A stretch of 33,398 nucleotides of DNA from a virus. The stretch's first letter is position 1. Each line of letters begins with the position of its first letter. Of this stretch, positions 13,877-20,943 are shown piece by piece. Where the stretch lies: the UHGV virus genome UHGV-0115916, one strand, 5' to 3'. The translations under genes and the position numbers were made by a program. The notes beneath the pieces are model-generated. The model made no database searches, was not told the DNA's origin, and worked only from the letters and a program-made list of their open reading frames with translations.

Positions 13877-16800
13877 TTATTTATTCATTAGTTGTTGTAC
13901 TAATGCTTTTAGTTCATCAATTTGTGATTGTTGATAATCATTATCTTTCTTCAATGATTGAACCGATCCCATTAAATCCATAACAATTGGGTTAACATCG
14001 ATAGACGGTCTATCGCGTGTTAGTTGTTCTACTATGTTTCCTTCTTCATCAAGTACTTCATCATAGATTTCTGGATTGTGTTTCACATACTGAGGTGTGT
14101 TTATTTCTGACTCTTCGGCAATAATCCCAAAACGCTGGCGTTTTTGTTCATCATCTTTATAGACAAAATTAACCATTTTTTGAGATAAAATTCTTTCTAA
14201 CGCTTCGTCGGTTTTTGCTTCTACAATATCTTCTTTATAGTCTCTACCGGATGTACCTTGTAAAGCCAATGCACCACCACCTAGCGGTAGTGAGATCCAA
14301 TATTGTGGGCTTCCTGCTGCTGTGTAGGTCTGGAATCCGTAGTTGCCTACAGTTTCTGAAAAACCAGCACGGATACGTACAACACCATTTGATGCAAGAT
14401 TACATGTATAAGAGGCTGAACCGTTGGAACGTAGCATAATTGCATCAGTACCAGCACTTGAACCACCACACGTAACACGGTTGCTAGTTACATCGAATGT
14501 ACCAGCACATGTAGTATTACCTAATGCAGTAATAACACCGCCGAAATTCATGGTATTAGTAGTACGTGAATAGTTGAATAGAGCTACACCACCTGTATTA
14601 TCACGGTTTAAACGGAATGATCCACCATCTGCTACAAATAGATATGTACTATCTGAGGAATCCGATTCTACAAATGATAAACATGGGTTTGTACTGGTAA
14701 TAGTTAATGGGTTTGACGCTGCGTTAGAGAATTTAGCAGTACCATTATTAGTTACGTTGATACCCGGCGTTGTAATTAGACTACTGAAATAAGAGCCACC
14801 ATTACTAAAGGTCATTAAGCCCTGTCCAACGGTTGCGGAACCTTCACCAACATAGATACGTGCATCATAATCGTTTCCAGTACCGCTACTGTGAAAATCA
14901 ATAAATGATCCCGCCTTTGTTGTTGTACTGCCTAATTCAAAACCTACTGTACTTGTATTTAATGTACCAACCTGTAAGCCACCAGTTTTAATAGTTTGTG
15001 ACCCGTTCCATTGGTTACCACCATCTAGCGTTGGGATAGTTACACCCAATTGATCATTCGTTAGGTATTCTTTCCATGCAGTCCACCCCGCCGTACCAGC
15101 TAATACACGTCTCCATTTACGATTACTTGCGTAGGATGTATATTCTTGTACACAAGCCTGTGCGGTTCCTGCACCAGTTGGATATACGTATAAACCGCCA
15201 GCCTCGGCAATTGGGTATTTGTTAGCAGGGGTTGCACTTGCGTTTAGTGTTTGGTAATAGAATCCAGATTGAGCCGCACCCAATGTATCTAGGTTAACAC
15301 TAGCGGCTAGTGCCGTCTGACTACGGTACATTGCCTGTAAATTATTACGGGCTGCATCTACACTATTTGCACCAGTACCGCCCTCTGTAATTGCAAGTTT
15401 ATTCGTTAGTGTTAGTACACCATTGAAATGTAAACTTGCAGCCATAATATTCATTGAACCACTACCAGCCGCCGTAGTAGAACCGCCTGTAGATTGAATA
15501 CGAGAATCATAATCTACGGTACTACCGGAACTGTGAAAATCAATATAAGATGTACTAGCCGCTACTGTAGAGCCAATTTCAATACCGCCACCTGTGGAAG
15601 AATTAGCCGCAAATCTATTTTGATTGCCGTTAAATTGTTGGTTACCAGACCATGTATTTTCTGTACTTAATAGTGGGATTGTTGCACCAGAAGTACCAGT
15701 ATTAATTACTGCTGAAGTACCTAAGCCTAAGTTTGTACGTGCGTTAGCTACGTTAGTTAAATCAGATAGGTTACTTGCCTTAATAAGATACTTACCATCC
15801 ATTGCAGTACTTGTAACGATACCTAAGTTTACTTGTGCCTGTGCAACGGTACTAGCACCTGTGCCACCGTTCGCCACTGGTACGATATCGAAAGTACCCG
15901 CCGCTTTAACGCCTAAGTTTGTACGTGCTTCTGCTGCCGTCTTAGCACCAGTACCGCCATTTGCTACCGTTAGAGCTTGACCTAAAGTTAATGATCCTGC
16001 ACTTGCTACGCCTAAAGTAGAAGTAGTGGTTTTAATACTTTCACCAGTGATTGCACCAGTTGCCTCTACATCTGCACCCGTAATTTTATTTGCAGAAATT
16101 AAGCTATTGACTTTGACATTACCGGAAAATGTTTTATTCCCTGCAATAGTCTGATCACCAGTTAGAGCTACATACTTTGTATCACCTAGATTAGTTGTTA
16201 AAATACGTTGCCATGCGGTAGTCTGGTTTTTTGCATAGATTGCAAGTGAACCTGTTTTAGTCATTGCGATAGAACTAAAAGTAGTACCATCAATTAGACC
16301 TACACCCATCATATCAGCACTGGCTGGATTACCCACTTGTGACGCTGGGATCTTGATAAAGCTGTTACCTAGTGGGCGTTCTGGTTGATACTGTGGTACA
16401 TCACCACCATTACTACCTACACCATAGGAACCTTCTACTAATGCTGCACTTGCTAACGCCGTACCATCACGTGTAATAACGTCTGTAGGTACAAAAGAAT
16501 AGGTTTTCATTACTACGGTATCTTTATCACCAGATACGTTAGCTGATTGGATTTGACCATTAACCATTGAATAATTGATTAAACCATCTTCAATATTGTA
16601 GCGTAGTGTTAATTGAAATTCTTTTTGACTCTCGGTTGCAGCATCTAAGAAAGCATGTGTTTCATCATCTGGAATATAGTTAACAGTAATATCAATATTA
16701 TCTACGTTTTGTTCTGCTGCTAGTTTAGATGAGTACTCACTATCGTATGTTTCAAGTGTTTGTATCTCACTTTCGATTCCAAATGACGGCATCGCTGCCA

Positions 16801-16903
16801 ATTCGTTTATTTCTTCGTTGCCTGCATTATCGGGAATACGGTTAGCAGTATCATTATTATAGAATAACTTAAAGTTATTACCTGTAAAAATATCATTACT
16901 CAT
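13877..16903 (-). CDS. Tail fibre protein with N-terminal tail-tube-like domain and C-terminal intramolecular-chaperone-like domain
   Basis: 1008 aa; N-terminal ~150 aa aligns with the 152-aa major tail protein (DIFTG/DIFSG, VNYIPDDETH/VNYLPDNETH, GDKDTVVMK/GDKDAVVTK); repeated NGGTGA...NLG fibre repeats in the middle; C-terminus (GRDYKEDI ... RFGIIAEE ... IDELKALVQQL) resembles peptidase-S74-type autoprocessing chaperone domains. Confidence 0.7.
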   Translation of the reverse strand: MSNDIFTGNNFKLFYNNDTANRIPDNAGNEEINELAAMPSFGIESEIQTLETYDSEYSSKLAAEQNVDNIDITVNYIPDDETHAFLDAATESQKEFQLTLRYNIEDGLINYSMVNGQIQSANVSGDKDTVVMKTYSFVPTDVITRDGTALASAALVEGSYGVGSNGGDVPQYQPERPLGNSFIKIPASQVGNPASADMMGVGLIDGTTFSSIAMTKTGSLAIYAKNQTTAWQRILTTNLGDTKYVALTGDQTIAGNKTFSGNVKVNSLISANKITGADVEATGAITGESIKTTTSTLGVASAGSLTLGQALTVANGGTGAKTAAEARTNLGVKAAGTFDIVPVANGGTGASTVAQAQVNLGIVTSTAMDGKYLIKASNLSDLTNVANARTNLGLGTSAVINTGTSGATIPLLSTENTWSGNQQFNGNQNRFAANSSTGGGIEIGSTVAASTSYIDFHSSGSTVDYDSRIQSTGGSTTAAGSGSMNIMAASLHFNGVLTLTNKLAITEGGTGANSVDAARNNLQAMYRSQTALAASVNLDTLGAAQSGFYYQTLNASATPANKYPIAEAGGLYVYPTGAGTAQACVQEYTSYASNRKWRRVLAGTAGWTAWKEYLTNDQLGVTIPTLDGGNQWNGSQTIKTGGLQVGTLNTSTVGFELGSTTTKAGSFIDFHSSGTGNDYDARIYVGEGSATVGQGLMTFSNGGSYFSSLITTPGINVTNNGTAKFSNAASNPLTITSTNPCLSFVESDSSDSTYLFVADGGSFRLNRDNTGGVALFNYSRTTNTMNFGGVITALGNTTCAGTFDVTSNRVTCGGSSAGTDAIMLRSNGSASYTCNLASNGVVRIRAGFSETVGNYGFQTYTAAGSPQYWISLPLGGGALALQGTSGRDYKEDIVEAKTDEALERILSQKMVNFVYKDDEQKRQRFGIIAEESEINTPQYVKHNPEIYDEVLDEEGNIVEQLTRDRPSIDVNPIVMDLMGSVQSLKKDNDYQQSQIDELKALVQQLMNK

Positions 16904-16917
16904 TTCTCTATATTTCC

Positions 16918-17322
16918 TTATTGTTTTTGAGTTGCTACAATATTTATAGAGAATGATAAAGATTGATAACCAGTAGTCGGATCTGTAACTACTTCCCCAT
17001 TGTCGAATGCATATGATAATAGTGTTACTGCATTATCTTTAAATTCTTTAATTGTATTTGTTTTGAAATAATCCATAATTTCCCCGAAAATATCGGCGGG
17101 AAGTTTTACTGATGGTTCGGGTACTAACAGGAATTGAAAATCAAATGTTCCCGTTTGTCTTTGAGTACCGAAATTTGTTAGGTTATAACTCTGGTTTACA
17201 CTAACTAGAATGAATAGATCCTTACCTGCCTGAATATTCATAGCCTTTCGGATTGGTTGAATATTATTCAAACTCGTAATTATCGTGGTTTGTACGTCTT
17301 TTAACAGTGCCATAATTACCAC
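16918..17322 (-). CDS. Head-tail connector / neck protein (tail terminator or completion candidate)
   Basis: 134-aa ORF between the capsid and tail genes; function assigned by position only. Confidence 0.4.
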   Translation of the reverse strand: MVIMALLKDVQTTIITSLNNIQPIRKAMNIQAGKDLFILVSVNQSYNLTNFGTQRQTGTFDFQFLLVPEPSVKLPADIFGEIMDYFKTNTIKEFKDNAVTLLSYAFDNGEVVTDPTTGYQSLSFSINIVATQKQ

Positions 17323-17636
17323 CCATAGTTATTAATGGATGTTAGGCGTATATAGATTTCACTGATACCGCTTAAATCATCGTATACATTACTTACTGTA
17401 TAACTAACACCGCCGATACCTAGAATAGTACCTGCTGTAATATTATGCGTTTTAATATCTGCTGACTTTGCAGAAATAAACGTTTCTACACTTTCTACTA
17501 ATCCTTCAGTACCGCTATCTAACACAACGGGGCGTACATCTACTATACCCGTAAATGACGCCCCGTTAATTGTGATAGGTTCACCAAAGGCATTTAAGAA
17601 AGTAGAATCAATTTGATTACTTGTAAAATGCCTCAT
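17316..17636 (-). CDS. Head-tail joining / head completion protein candidate
   Basis: 106-aa ORF directly downstream of the capsid gene; function assigned by position only. Confidence 0.4.
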   Translation of the reverse strand: MRHFTSNQIDSTFLNAFGEPITINGASFTGIVDVRPVVLDSGTEGLVESVETFISAKSADIKTHNITAGTILGIGGVSYTVSNVYDDLSGISEIYIRLTSINNYGW

Positions 17637-17645
17637 GGGTAATCC

Positions 17646-19496
17646 TTATGCTTGTAGTTTAATTTGTACGAATGCTTCCTCGTGACCGATTGCAGTGTCG
17701 AGATATTGGAAACTACGAATAGCGATAGTTTGAGCCGCACGATAAGTAGTATCGTCAAAATCTAGTTCTTGGCCTTCATTCCAGTTAGCGAAAATTAGCT
17801 CTGAGAAGTCACCGATTAGAATGGTATCTTGTGCAACGAAAGTAGATTCAATTACACGTACTTCATCGTTTAGCCACATGTCATAGCGATGACCTGCTAC
17901 CATTGCTACGGCTGCGGTATTGCTGAGAACTGCGGTTTGACGTAGTTTTGCTAGCATTGCTGGATGCACGATAGCTACACAACGATTAACATCAACGTTT
18001 GCTACACCTAGTGCCTCAATTGCTTTTTGTACGTCTGCTTCGGTTACTGTACCCGCTGCTGCTGTTTCTTGTACTGGTACTGCTAGTGCAATTTTATCAA
18101 ATACTGCTTTTTCTAGACCGTTAGAGCAATGGCGTAGTAGTTCATCAGTTACATAACGTTCAGTTGCTGCATTGCTTAGTAGCATTGCTTTAGTAACTTT
18201 AATACCTGCTGCAAACATAGTAGGCTTTAGAGTGATCTTGTCGAAAGATTCAAAACCATCTACTACGGATTCATCTTCACCGTAGAATTTCGCTACAGGG
18301 TTCATACCTTTAGCACGTGGGATAGAGAAATTACCACGACCTGCTAGGCCACCAAATACAGTAACAGGTAGTTGACCTAGTACAGTACGTGCTAGTAGTT
18401 CACGTAGATAAGAGTCGGCTAGTTGTTCTTTAACTAGACCTGCTGCGGTAACAGTAGAGGTAGTATCTGAAGTAGAACGTACCATTGCATTTAGATCAGC
18501 ACTATAACCACGTGAACCTTTATCAAAAGTTGCTAGTTGGTTATCTTCACCTTTAAGACTACGTAGACCTTCAGCGATTAGAGATTTATTTTCCATTTGT
18601 TTGATATCCTTATCAATTGATTTATCTTTATTTAGTAGTGAGCGTTTAAATTCATCTACGCTTACACCGTTTTTAATTGCTTCTTCGGTACTAATCCCTA
18701 GTACGTTAGAAATAGATTGAAGTTCGCGTACACGCTTATCTTCTACATCTTTATTTAGTTTTTCTTGAATATTGATTTCAGTAGTTGCAATAGAACGTTC
18801 TTCTACTAGTTCCACTTCTTGAAGTGGTTCGGATACTTCTTCTTTTACTTCTTCTTCTTTCACATCTTCAGCGACTACTACAACTTCTTCAGTAACTTCT
18901 AATTCTGGTTGTACTTCTACTTCCTGAATTTCTTCTACGGCTTCTACTTGTGGTAATTCTTGTTTTTGTTCTTCCATGATTGGTTGATCCTCTAAAGTGA
19001 TTTCTTCATTTCTATTTAGTGATCTTCCAATTCCTACTGTATTGTCTGCGGGGGTACTTACTGAACTTAATTCATATGGTTCCCATCGAGTTACATATAA
19101 ATTATCACCTTCAAAGTAATAATCTTTAATGTTGTAACCTACTGATACTTTCGGGCGAATGCCTTCTAAGATCATACCGAAAATAGTTGTAGCACTTCCT
19201 AAAGCACTAAAGCGTACTGTTGCACGACATACTTTATCCATATCTACGCGGGCGTTTTCTACTATTCCAACTTGACGCATTGCATCATGTTCTACTAGAA
19301 CTGGTGCACCATCATTAAGACGGTTTAAATCTACGTTCTCTGGATTGCATAGAAGGATCTCATTAAATAGAGATCCGTTGATTTCGCGAGTTACTGGAAT
19401 TTCTGAGGCAAAAGATAATTCGACGGTACGATCATTTTCATCAATAGCATTACTGATCTGTGTTAGATTGATCGCCCTCTTCTGGTTCAATTCCAT
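17646..19496 (-). CDS. Prohead protease - major capsid protein fusion (HK97 family)
   Basis: 616 aa; N-terminal ~150 aa matches the HK97-type prohead protease pattern (GAPVLVEHD..., KVSVGY, ELSSVSTPADN); acidic Glu/Val-rich linker (aa ~170-230); C-terminal ~300 aa consistent with an HK97-fold capsid protein; 47-nt overlap with the portal ORF makes the start uncertain. Confidence 0.7.
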   Translation of the reverse strand: MELNQKRAINLTQISNAIDENDRTVELSFASEIPVTREINGSLFNEILLCNPENVDLNRLNDGAPVLVEHDAMRQVGIVENARVDMDKVCRATVRFSALGSATTIFGMILEGIRPKVSVGYNIKDYYFEGDNLYVTRWEPYELSSVSTPADNTVGIGRSLNRNEEITLEDQPIMEEQKQELPQVEAVEEIQEVEVQPELEVTEEVVVVAEDVKEEEVKEEVSEPLQEVELVEERSIATTEINIQEKLNKDVEDKRVRELQSISNVLGISTEEAIKNGVSVDEFKRSLLNKDKSIDKDIKQMENKSLIAEGLRSLKGEDNQLATFDKGSRGYSADLNAMVRSTSDTTSTVTAAGLVKEQLADSYLRELLARTVLGQLPVTVFGGLAGRGNFSIPRAKGMNPVAKFYGEDESVVDGFESFDKITLKPTMFAAGIKVTKAMLLSNAATERYVTDELLRHCSNGLEKAVFDKIALAVPVQETAAAGTVTEADVQKAIEALGVANVDVNRCVAIVHPAMLAKLRQTAVLSNTAAVAMVAGHRYDMWLNDEVRVIESTFVAQDTILIGDFSELIFANWNEGQELDFDDTTYRAAQTIAIRSFQYLDTAIGHEEAFVQIKLQA

Positions 19497-20943
19497 TTTC
19501 CATTTTTTCCTTTTGTATTTCTTCCATGACTACCGCCGGGTCATAACCCATTTCACTAATAACCATTGCTTTACTCTTAAGTCCTGAATCAATTGCAAGT
19601 ACCTCAGTTTGAAGGTCTTTATATGGATCAAGTGAGATTTGGCGAGTTGGTACATATTGGGCATGAGTTAGATTATTGAAGTCACTAAAACTTAAATTGC
19701 TTAATGCACTATTATTTATCATTGCTGCTTTCAACCACGTAACATAAAGAGGCTTAAGTACAGAAACGATTAACGCATTAGTACGAGTTTTAAATGTTGA
19801 TTGTTGTAGTTTGTCCGTTAGTTTTGCTGCACTAAATGAAGCATTACTAGTATCAGAGGTTAGGGATTGTTTTGTAATATCAAGCCCCATTGCAATCATC
19901 ATTAATTGGTTATCTACGAATTCACTAATACCATCTGTAGTTTGTGTAGGGTTAACAGTTTTAATATCCTGTCCTGCCTGTAGTTCTACGATAGCTGCCG
20001 GATTTAGATAATCTTGTTCATAGTAAGAAACATCATCACCTTTTAGTAATTCGATTTCATCACTATCTGGATTAGTAATAAATGCCATTGCTGAAGCTGC
20101 TACTTTACGAGAAGTAATAGCCGCAACCATGAATTCTTCTAATTCTTTTAATTTATCAGTACCTGCATGTACATCTGGAATACCGCGTTGCTGTGTTGGG
20201 TAGTCCTGCTGGAATAGGTGTAGAATCTCTTCTGCTGGTACTCGTTCACGTTCACCTAAAAGGTAGTTGTACATGATAGGGTTATAGCGAGTAATCCAAT
20301 ATGCAACCGGGCGATTAGTATCAATATCAAATTCAATACCATTACTGATATAGTTACCTGAAGGTAGAATCTGGTTTTCATATGTACTAATTCGCATTGA
20401 GTCGATGATCTCTACCTGTGGCATACCATCACGCGTTTGGTGAATGCGGATAAAGCAATCTCCATCGATACTACGAGTACGTTCTACAAGGCGTTGGAAT
20501 GTACTGATATCAAGCGTACCGCAACGGGAAAAGGCTTTAGGATCTTCGGCCCATGCATAAAAAGCATCTTCTAACTGTTTATTCACCTGTTGGTTTACTT
20601 TGTCATCCTGTGAACTATGCGAACAAGGGCGAATATATAGACCATCTGCACCAGTAACACCCGCTGAGTTAGTCGCAACGTACTTTTTAACGATACCGTT
20701 TTTAATAGATAGTTCACGGCTTGCCGCTACCATCACTGGTAAAGTACGATTAATAATTGCGTTAATGTTCCCGGCTTGATTTCCTGCGGTGAATCCGAAT
20801 GAAATAACAGGACTACTTGAACCTAGATTTAGGGAAGTCATAGCACGTTTCATTGGGTTGTTTTTCATTAATGCAGTTTTATGTATTTGTACTTTTGGTT
20901 TTTCTGGTTCCTGTACTTTTTTATTTTTATTCCATCCGAACAT
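19450..20943 (-). CDS. Portal protein (lambda gpB-like family)
   Basis: 497 aa between the terminase and capsid genes; acidic C-terminus; size and position typical of portal proteins. Confidence 0.8.
   Translation of the reverse strand: MFGWNKNKKVQEPEKPKVQIHKTALMKNNPMKRAMTSLNLGSSSPVISFGFTAGNQAGNINAIINRTLPVMVAASRELSIKNGIVKKYVATNSAGVTGADGLYIRPCSHSSQDDKVNQQVNKQLEDAFYAWAEDPKAFSRCGTLDISTFQRLVERTRSIDGDCFIRIHQTRDGMPQVEIIDSMRISTYENQILPSGNYISNGIEFDIDTNRPVAYWITRYNPIMYNYLLGERERVPAEEILHLFQQDYPTQQRGIPDVHAGTDKLKELEEFMVAAITSRKVAASAMAFITNPDSDEIELLKGDDVSYYEQDYLNPAAIVELQAGQDIKTVNPTQTTDGISEFVDNQLMMIAMGLDITKQSLTSDTSNASFSAAKLTDKLQQSTFKTRTNALIVSVLKPLYVTWLKAAMINNSALSNLSFSDFNNLTHAQYVPTRQISLDPYKDLQTEVLAIDSGLKSKAMVISEMGYDPAVVMEEIQKEKMENGIEPEEGDQSNTDQ

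Follow-up and report, generated by a model that had tools for sequence, protein, structure and literature searches.

The region under study lies in the viral genome UHGV-0115916, of which one stretch of 33,398 nucleotides (hereafter, the window) was analysed. A single gene of this stretch encodes a 616-residue product in which a protease, a linker, a scaffold-like segment and a capsid domain follow one another (Table 1). In DNA with a G+C content of 38%, an uninterrupted frame of 616 codons is far beyond chance. The product was matched from end to end by the profile PHROG 617, a phage 'major head protein' family (residues 4-613 on profile positions 8-622 of 626, E 7.3e-90). According to profile scans, its upstream neighbours are a gpA-type large terminase gene and a lambda-family portal gene.

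Table 1. Coordinates of the fusion gene, of its predicted parts and of candidate translation signals in the window
Feature	Position	Strand	Details	Source
Whole fusion gene	17646-19496	minus	616 aa, 68.2 kDa; ATG start; stop codon 17646-17648	ORF list
Prohead serine protease domain (predicted)	19023-19496	minus	aa 1-158, folded core aa 16-158; His70 codon 19287-19289, Ser118 codon 19143-19145	
Acidic Glu/Val-rich linker	18801-19022	minus	aa 159-232; predicted disordered, length-variable	
Helical middle segment, candidate scaffolding/delta-domain equivalent	18477-18800	minus	aa 233-340; ends at near-invariant Arg340	
HK97-fold major capsid domain	17649-18476	minus	aa 341-616	Pfam Phage_capsid, Foldseek
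Portal gene, lambda-family	19450-20943	minus	Phage_portal_2 (E 4e-62), TIGR01539	Pfam, TIGR01539, ORF list
Shine-Dalgarno-like motif AAGGAA for the fusion start	19507-19512	minus	inside portal gene; same distance in close loci	
Candidate internal start Met174	18975-18992	minus	GAGGA 18988-18992, 10 nt upstream of in-frame ATG 18975-18977	
Second candidate internal start Met301	18594-18611	minus	AAGGA 18607-18611, upstream of in-frame ATG 18594-18596	

HK97-type prohead protease motifs had been assigned to the N-terminal domain in an earlier, sequence-only reading of this DNA. These motifs were indeed found: His70 is located in LVEHDAMRQVG and Ser118 in KVSVGY, and a further motif reads YELSSVSTPAD. 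They are invariant in 137 relatives, which are diverse representatives less than 50% identical to each other, 540-700 residues long and aligned over their full length. In all 137 sequences, E46, H70, G77, S118, Y121, E142, S144 and R158 are unchanged, so that neither the catalytic His nor the catalytic Ser is missing on alignment. When the HK97 gp4 protease was aligned with MAFFT, its residues H65 and S114, which we take to be catalytic, fell on H70 and S118, with a spacing of 49 residues in gp4 against 48 here.

No match to Peptidase_S78 (PF04586) was obtained with the whole protein in the Pfam scan, nor with residues 1-174 alone even at E<=10, where only noise was returned; the linker and middle segment scanned at E<=10 also gave only noise and no protease family. 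The window protein thus stays below the Pfam threshold of this family, unlike several of its relatives. PF04586 was matched at E<=0.01 by 15 of 25 aligned relatives, and every relative scanned individually exceeded the cut-off of 21 bits (VP882 gp07, 23.5 bits; FoX2, 28.1 bits; Arya, 37.6 bits), HK97 gp4 scoring 105 bits. The N-terminal domains of VP882 gp07, FoX2 and Arya are 38-44% identical to that of the window protein, whose membership of Peptidase_S78 is transitive, via these relatives and via its fold. The fold search assigned the domain to the assemblin / T4 gp21 type, not to ClpP, and the fold matches in BFVD carry the name HK97-family prohead protease. Comparison of the family alignments with the single HK97 gp4 sequence by hhalign was not significant, only the E-S-V..PA motif being aligned, and a PDB sequence search with the whole protein gave chance ribosomal matches only (E about 0.9). 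Homology and fold model together predict that residues 16-158 are a prohead serine protease of the HK97 gp4 type (Peptidase_S78, assemblin fold).

The segment that follows had been described as strongly acidic and rich in Glu and Val, which its composition confirms: 36% of its residues are Asp or Glu and 19% Val, and with four Lys/Arg residues its net charge is -23. Its pLDDT is about 30, the indels among relatives fall within it, and the DNA that encodes it contains short GAA-type tandem repeats. Between this linker and the capsid domain, residues 233-340 form a helical, delta-domain-like segment that the earlier reading had missed. In the AF2 model, helices were found at residues 235-266, 271-275, 280-289, 292-299, 305-313 and 335-342. 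The match to the HK97 capsid model TIGR01554 begins at residue 262, on profile position 54; by analogy with the cleavage of HK97 gp5 at residue 103, this beginning would belong to the delta-domain part. R340 is kept in 99% of the 137 relatives.

The remainder of the protein, previously called HK97-fold-like, is matched by PF05065 (Phage_capsid) over residues 354-613 with 60.2 bits against a cut-off of 24.2, and TIGR01554 gave 49 bits for the capsid part against a cut-off of 27.5. The structural model of this domain is of moderate confidence only; submitted to Foldseek, it gave 383 PDB matches at E<=1e-3, headed by the capsids of R4C, phiXacJX1, D3 and HK97 (E 6e-14 to 1e-11, target-normalised TM 0.58-0.69). 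A comparison of the family alignment with HK97 gp5 by hhalign was weak (probability 33%). As for an HK97-style Lys-Asn crosslink, the position of K169 corresponds to Val411 in the weak gp5 alignment, which is too uncertain for any claim. The predicted cleavage that would yield the mature shell protein most likely takes place after Arg340 and would leave a product of about 29.9 kDa, this site being a guess from conservation and from the analogy with Lys103/Ser104 of HK97 gp5.

The start of the gene had been held uncertain on account of a 47-nt overlap with the portal ORF. The overlap is real, the shared stretch 19450-19496 being the last 47 nt of the portal gene. The doubt itself is not sustained: the first Met of the relatives falls on the ATG at 19496, the PHROG 617 match begins as early as residue 4, the AAGGAA motif is positionally kept in the close loci, and the overlap is conserved, the fusion gene starting within the 3' end of the portal gene in relatives too (overlaps of 8-53 nt). 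In the close family, the duplex between the Shine-Dalgarno (SD) motif of the fusion start and the anti-SD has an energy of -5.4 to -6.2 kcal/mol, the median for the other gene starts in the window being -5.6 kcal/mol; weaker values were obtained for L016 (-4.4 kcal/mol) and VP882 (-4.3 kcal/mol). On these comparisons, ATG 19496 is well supported as the start codon.

That protease, acidic linker and capsid are encoded as one 616-residue polypeptide is the core of the reading, which profile, alignment and fold evidence support. Neither a stop codon nor a frameshift separates protease and capsid in any of 13 related DNA loci (29-99% identity), in which the ORF is intact, or in the 137 full-length relatives. 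More than 5,000 protein clusters (5,308) match the window protein, and the best 150 of these 5,308 are nearly all full-length fusions of 570-680 residues. Genomes of E. coli, Citrobacter, Salmonella and Shigella contributed 120 clusters with the same frame, which also occurs in cultured phages. Furthermore, residues 15-310 align with PHROG 4523 ('major head and protease protein'; E 1e-42), and residues 18-290 with NCBIfam NF045541 ('prohead protease/major capsid protein fusion protein'; E 3e-36). The latter match reaches 125.1 bits, a score that misses the curated cut-off of 525 bits and denotes homology of the N-terminal half, outside this narrow 'exception' model. When genome contigs were scanned, one true locus was obtained, in Pseudocitrobacter faecalis DSM 27453 (99%). 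The 12 kb head/tail region had no megablast match among phages and plasmids, and in complete E. coli genomes it was found only in two chromosomal prophages, at about 78% identity.

The fusion of protease and capsid is an architecture that is already known and widespread, and the present gene is an ordinary example of it. Capsids fused with a protease occur in the Rhodobacter RcC phages (PMC8601537), and the Francisella phage KIRK has a 600-residue 'Peptidase_S78, Phage_capsid' protein adjoining a Phage_portal_2 portal (PMC7924643). In Gifsy-2, the genes of prohead protease and coat are fused too (Effantin et al. 2010, Virology 402:355, as cited in PMC12315714 and PMC8538268). Such fusions have also been described in the literature on actinobacteriophages.

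The head module had been read as lambda-like, with a Nu1/gpA terminase and a lambda-type portal, and the region as mosaic. The first description stands for the gpA-type terminase and the lambda-family portal but not for Nu1: the small terminase is identified only by a PHROG named 'terminase small subunit' and by a weak HTH match, and no Nu1 or terminase small-subunit Pfam family was listed at E<=0.01. The mosaic character did not survive comparison, since VP882, phiHAP-1, Arya, ep3 and FoX2 carry the same block in the same order as here: a small terminase is followed by the gpA-type large terminase, the W-like head-tail joining gene, the lambda-family portal and finally the S78-capsid fusion. 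As the first gene of the Persinger record is the portal, only this gene and the fusion are visible there. The terminase-portal-fusion block is an old, co-inherited module rather than one pieced together recently; a module boundary is visible where the head block gives way to the tail genes. Profile scans showed no gpD-like gene beside the capsid gene.

Among the closest known systems are fusion proteins annotated as 'major head proteins'. The comparison included those of VP882 (gp07, 632 residues; Vibrio), phiHAP-1 (Halomonas) and Arya (Enterobacter), and further fusion proteins of ep3 and ECO1230-10 (Escherichia), Persinger (Pseudomonas), FoX (Xanthomonas) and KIRK (Francisella; PMC7924643). 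The VP882-like fusions have in common with the window protein an S78 protease, a low-complexity linker, a helical segment and an HK97-fold capsid, within 600-685 residues. The alignment with VP882 gp07 covers 86% of the window protein, and identity between the N-domains is 41-46%. Overall identity to the VP882-like fusions is only about 28-30%, the capsid halves being far more diverged, and compared with them the linker is here exceptionally rich in Glu and Val. The tails of the VP882-like phages are contractile and come with baseplate genes; here, tail tube and tape measure are lambda-like. Rhodobacter phages, with distant hosts and highly diverged sequences, were also among the tblastn matches to the window protein.

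HK97 itself shares with the window the protease family, the catalytic His/Ser pair, the capsid fold and the portal-protease-capsid order. In HK97 a scaffold domain is fused to the capsid protein, and this N-terminal helical scaffold-like region of gp5, which resembles the region found here, is removed by the protease (PMC10275583). In contrast, protease and capsid are two genes in HK97, while they are joined here by a 74-residue acidic tether, and the terminase and portal of HK97 belong, by annotation, to different families.

The Gifsy-2 fusion protein reportedly contains a central, presumed scaffold segment and yields the mature capsid protein by processing, and its protease is said to be ClpP-like. 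The domain order is as here but the protease family is different, that of the window protein being assemblin-like, and neither ClpP nor S49 appeared in the Pfam scans. Since the protease folds differ (ClpP-like, as reported, against HK97 gp4/assemblin), the two fusions would have arisen independently. As here, one gene of Gifsy-2 encodes both the protease and the major capsid protein (PMC12315714). The other head genes of that phage are lambda-like. Gifsy-2 has in addition a trimeric decoration protein (PMC8538268), whereas here no gpD-like gene accompanies the capsid gene.

Taken together, we consider it very probable that a temperate enterobacterial phage has at positions 17646-19496 a tripartite capsid gene, whose single translation product comprises, in this order, an S78 protease, a flexible acidic tether, a scaffold-like helical segment and an HK97-fold capsid domain. 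By analogy with HK97, the C-terminal domains would build capsomers and then a procapsid around the lambda-family portal, with the N-terminal parts on the inner side of the shell, like the HK97 delta domain. HK97 gp4 has a C-terminal tail of about 65 residues past its catalytic core; this tail is absent from the fusion proteins, which in the alignment run on into the linker, and the covalent linkage may stand in for the targeting function of this tail in free gp4. After assembly, the His70/Ser118 protease would cut the precursor, likeliest just past Arg340, and would also degrade protease, linker and scaffold, so that the mature shell is built from a protein of about 30 kDa. The mature shell could then expand and be filled by the gpA-type terminase. 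If all subunits were full-length, a T=7 shell (assumed, about 415 copies) would enclose, at 38.3 kDa each, about 16 MDa of N-terminal material, and the procapsid interior would be crowded.

The long frame might instead be artificial, through misassembly or a frameshift, or two normally separate genes might have been joined recently by accident. This explanation has practically no probability and is already refuted by the comparative sequence data, as the same frame is kept in the 13 loci, in the 120 enterobacterial clusters, in cultured phages and in nearly all of the best 150 of the 5,308 clusters; the short representatives that would speak for it, P0152 (180 residues, protease only) and P0182 (309 residues, capsid only), could be either split versions or simply contig-end fragments. 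An inactive structural (scaffolding) relic in place of the protease would not be expected to keep His70, Ser118, E46, Y121, E142, S144 and R158 invariant in 137 relatives, and a scan of the genes between terminase and tail tube, these two included, gave no second protease candidate. The window protein does have no direct Pfam protease match, and the lambda-like neighbours might suggest a lambda-type enzyme, of the ClpP/S49 kind to which lambda gpC and the Gifsy-2 protease belong. The fold is nevertheless that of assemblin / T4 gp21 and not of ClpP, Peptidase_S78 is the family that the relatives match, and neither ClpP nor S49 was returned by any Pfam scan; relic and ClpP/S49-type protease alike are thus very unlikely.

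A further reading refines the tripartite capsid gene without excluding it. The gene may be nested, with a minor full-length form translated from ATG 19496 and a major, protease-less form initiated at Met174 and possibly also at Met301, so that the protease:capsid ratio would be set by translation. We regard this as a tentative possibility, somewhat less likely than not. From Met174, the predicted product would comprise linker, scaffold and capsid (48.8 kDa). Met174 is invariant in 120 of 120 close homologues while the surrounding residues vary, and in the VP882 family, about 28% identical to the window protein, 95 of 108 members carry, after the protease domain, a Met at an offset of 14-17. 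A Met 8-30 residues past this domain occurs in 69% of the 137 diverse relatives, against about 41% expected; conversely, about 30% of the diverse fusion proteins lack it. In 13 of 13 loci, Met174 is preceded at a distance of 5-13 nt by an SD-like motif, within five amino acid contexts (LED, LKD, NQE, SEG and RGA) and with energies of -4.3 to -7.1 kcal/mol, whereas the 164 internal ATGs of the window have a median of -0.45 kcal/mol and only 11% of them reach -5. Glu-coding, on the other hand, makes the region purine-rich and favours SD-like strings. The SD-forming Glu codon is GAG in all eight loci with Glu at this place, although GAG makes up only 7-12% of the Glu codons of those genes, and the adjoining codons show synonymous changes. 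In Arya, ep3 and Persinger, GAGGA is found 7-10 nt ahead of an in-frame ATG, after protease and linker; in FoX2 the SD is weak. Moreover, within the single gene a strong SD is found at two of 12 conserved Met columns (Met174 and Met301), close to the 11% background, and the lineages are not independent.

Met301 appears to be the weaker candidate: its SD energy is -5.5 to -6.2 kcal/mol in eight enterobacterial-family lineages, with use of a rare AAG Lys codon, and the motif is absent in VP882. A T4-type (L/I)-x-E cleavage motif ('IME') was also considered as the cause of the conservation of Met174 and was rejected, as its P3 residue is not conserved among relatives.

Nested protease-scaffold genes are represented by lambda C/Nu3, Mu I/Z and herpesvirus UL26/UL26.5. 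With initiation at Met174, the same logic would operate here, a long protease form being accompanied by a shorter, abundant one; in the lambda C/Nu3-type systems, however, the capsid protein has a gene of its own and the protease of lambda belongs to the S49 type, and internal initiation is here only predicted. It is conceivable, though somewhat doubtful on present comparisons, that protease-less subunits are supplied in bulk from an internal RBS/ATG at Met174, possibly with Met301, that the full-length form is minor, and that a sub-stoichiometric tethered protease is the mode of protease dosing and packaging in the S78-capsid fusion class.

For annotation, these results mean that the bare label 'phage major capsid protein' is incomplete for hundreds of enterobacterial prophage genes, which encode a maturation protease and a scaffold-like segment as well. 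For the evolution of the head, they show that packaging and portal genes of lambda type belong with an HK97-type protease-capsid fusion to one long-lived head module, combined with contractile and non-contractile tails alike. Should initiation at Met174 be true, it would explain how fused genes avoid one protease per subunit and would provide a simple rule for protease dosing across a very large group of phages. Such a nested gene would be the phage counterpart of lambda C/Nu3 and UL26/UL26.5, with the capsid protein itself as the carrier.

The sequence-only reading of one polypeptide carrying protease, linker and capsid was supported by profile, alignment and fold evidence. The features it described were all found in place, except for the 'Nu1' label, which could not be confirmed: the only matches of the 243-aa small terminase ORF were the PHROG family 'terminase small subunit' and, weakly, an HTH model. 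G+C is about 38% around the fusion ORF, and an open frame of 616 codons is therefore not due to chance. In all 13 related DNA loci (29-99% identity, VP882 included), the frame was unbroken. Pseudocitrobacter faecalis DSM 27453 carries a prophage that is 99% identical in the fusion gene; close homologues (73-99% identical) were present in E. coli, Citrobacter, Salmonella and Shigella genomes, where they are named 'phage major capsid protein' only. An exhaustive HMMER search gave 5,308 clusters at E<=1e-3, of which the best 150 were almost all 570-680 aa. The two objections foreseen for this reading did not materialize: no stop or frameshift separated protease and capsid in the 13 loci, and the catalytic His and Ser were both aligned and invariant in 137 relatives. 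Judged by sequence comparison, the fusion is real and conserved.

Features of the fusion gene and its surroundings (window coordinates; aa, residues of the fusion protein)
Feature	Position	Strand	Remarks
Fusion ORF	17646..19496	-	ATG start, 616 aa (ORF list)
Portal ORF, upstream	19450..20943	-	47-nt overlap with fusion ORF
Protease domain	aa 16-158		pLDDT 81-97 (predicted fold, high confidence)
Acidic linker	aa 159-232; 18801-19022	-	composition, predicted disorder
Helical middle segment	aa 233-340		predicted-structure helices
Capsid domain	aa 341-616		passes Pfam Phage_capsid and TIGR01554
Met301 candidate start	18594-18611	-	in-frame ATG and AAGGA, the latter using a rare AAG Lys codon
gpFII-like head-tail attachment protein ORF	17316-17636	-	next after capsid gene
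ORF following gpFII-like gene	16918-17322	-	faint Ig-like match only
Tail tube protein, 152 aa	13352-13810	-	

In Pfam scans, no protease family was matched by the protein itself. Peptidase_S78 was matched by 15 of 25 aligned relatives at E<=0.01, and its gathering threshold was passed by every individually scored relative, including VP882 gp07, Arya and FoX2. Foldseek comparison with predicted viral structures returned matches named 'HK97 family phage prohead protease' and 'COG3740 phage head maturation protease', together with fragments of 'major capsid protein'. When full-length relatives with pairwise identity below 50% were aligned (137 proteins), E46, H70, G77, S118, Y121, E142, S144 and R158 were invariant. 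Furthermore, MAFFT placed His70 and Ser118 on His65 and Ser114 of HK97 gp4, with nearly identical spacing, and 'ELSSVSTPAD' opposite 'EISVCTFPAN' of gp4.

The linker is rich in Asp and Glu (36%) and Val (19%), with a net charge of -23 and a pLDDT of about 30, and is thus predicted to be disordered. Most length variation among the relatives falls in this Glu/Val-rich linker, and the DNA encoding it contains short GAA-type tandem repeats. These indels and repeats suggest replication slippage with little constraint past length and charge. The close homologues listed (73-99% identical) span 585-621 aa, with indels concentrated in the linker.

The TIGR01554 match begins at aa 262, corresponding to profile position 54; since cleavage of HK97 gp5 occurs at residue 103, we read this part of the model as the delta domain. 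Arg340, which closes the helical segment, is kept in 99% of the 137 relatives, and the capsid domain can be superposed on capsids of the HK97 fold with E-values of 6e-14 to 1e-11. No gpD-like decoration gene was found directly after the capsid gene by Pfam and PHROG scans of 16918-17636 (minus strand).

A maturation pathway may be proposed. The capsid domains would assemble round the portal with their N-terminal parts inside, like the HK97 delta domain (PMC10275583). The covalent linkage would stand in for the C-terminal tail that free HK97 gp4 has, in the alignment, beyond its catalytic core. After assembly, we infer, the protease would cut close to Arg340/Ser341, a site similar to Lys103/Ser104 of HK97 gp5, and would degrade the internal material; the shell protein left would have a computed mass of about 29.9 kDa.

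The real start had been called uncertain. However, ATG 19496 aligned with the first Met of relatives, the PHROG 617 match starts at residue 4, and the close loci share AAGGAA at equal distance upstream, with an energy against the anti-Shine-Dalgarno (SD) sequence of -5.4 to -6.2 kcal/mol in the close family, typical for gene starts in the window. In addition, the overlap recurs: in VP882, Arya, ep3, Persinger, FoX2 and the E. coli prophage, the fusion gene begins 8-53 nt before the portal gene ends. Sequence analysis can make this start no more secure, and the doubt about it is not supported.

The region had also been regarded as mosaic. Next to the fusion gene lie genes for a lambda-family portal and a large terminase of gpA type. 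The same five-gene block (small terminase, gpA-type terminase, W-like gene encoding about 175 aa, lambda-family portal, S78-capsid fusion) is common to VP882, phiHAP-1, Arya, ep3 and FoX2; terminase, portal and fusion domains were Pfam-confirmed in VP882, Arya and FoX2, and the Persinger record, which begins at the portal gene, displays portal and fusion only. The mosaic reading is thus not supported, and the head block is an old module inherited together, not a recent patchwork. The true module boundary is the head/tail junction: VP882, Arya and the other phages sharing the block carry baseplate genes of contractile tails, whereas in the prophage of the window the tail tube is lambda-like and a tape-measure-like gene encodes 727 aa. 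A 1008-aa ORF (13877-16903, minus strand) resembles the neighbouring tail tube protein over its first ~150 aa (30% identity, E 1e-20) and T5/BF23 L-shaped tail fibres over the rest, with a C-terminal Peptidase_S74 intramolecular chaperone. None of the cultured phage records spans at least 80% of it, and its product could be a tube-anchored side fibre.

The 78% identical prophage of E. coli WGI31CT (L002, 118319-153930) adjoins a truncated yegD, with a serine recombinase gene beside it. G+C is 30-44% across the window, well below that of its enterobacterial hosts. No record in phage and plasmid collections was matched at the DNA level (megablast, 12 kb head/tail region).

Protease-capsid fusion as an architecture is already known, and the present gene adds one more example. 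PHROG 4523 is named 'major head and protease protein', and an NCBIfam model 'prohead protease/major capsid protein fusion protein' exists, the protein scoring far under its narrow cut-off. A passage of PMC12315714, citing Effantin et al. 2010, describes fused prohead protease and coat genes in Gifsy-2; one table for Francisella phage KIRK (PMC7924643) lists a 600-aa 'Peptidase_S78, Phage_capsid' protein adjoining a Phage_portal_2 portal. In one cluster representative, P0252 (1103 aa), a lambda-family portal domain (aa 22-358), the protease region (aa 505-692) and a Phage_capsid domain (aa 830-1095) are combined in a single predicted protein; either the triple fusion is real, or a frameshift artefact has joined the overlapping portal and fusion genes. 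P0258, P0264, P0145 and P0190 are longer at the N-terminus by 130-230 residues. The protease-only P0152 (180 aa) and capsid-only P0182 (309 aa) may come from truly split genes or from gene calls cut short at the ends of contigs.

Met174, 16 residues past the protease domain, is invariant in 120/120 close homologues although flanking residues vary, and a Met stands at equal offset in 95 of 108 VP882-family proteins. An SD-like motif lies 5-13 nt before this position in 13/13 loci, in five amino-acid contexts, with energies of -4.3 to -7.1 kcal/mol, against a median of -0.45 for 164 internal ATGs in the window, 11% of which reach -5. The Glu codon that forms the motif is GAG, which is rare in the gene (6 of 67 Glu codons) yet kept in every locus with Glu there while adjacent codons change synonymously; in Arya, ep3 and Persinger, GAGGA precedes by 7-10 nt an in-frame ATG past protease and linker. 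Against such a start, about 30% of diverse fusions have no Met at this type of position, the region is purine-rich by composition, a further conserved Met (Met301) has an SD-like motif too, and SD-bearing sites at 2 of 12 conserved Met columns in one gene are near the background rate. We tentatively regard internal initiation at Met174 as a real possibility that falls somewhat short of probable; its product would be a scaffold-capsid protein of 48.8 kDa lacking the protease. Such a start would parallel lambda C/Nu3, a nested internal-start gene pair with a long and a shorter product from one frame. The SD-like motif of Met301 occurs in 8 lineages of the enterobacterial family, the most distant at 51% identity, and is absent in VP882; from this candidate start, a capsid protein preceded by a 40-aa leader would be made, about 34 kDa in all. 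The fusion itself is confirmed and of low interest; the nested start, which is testable, may be the exception.
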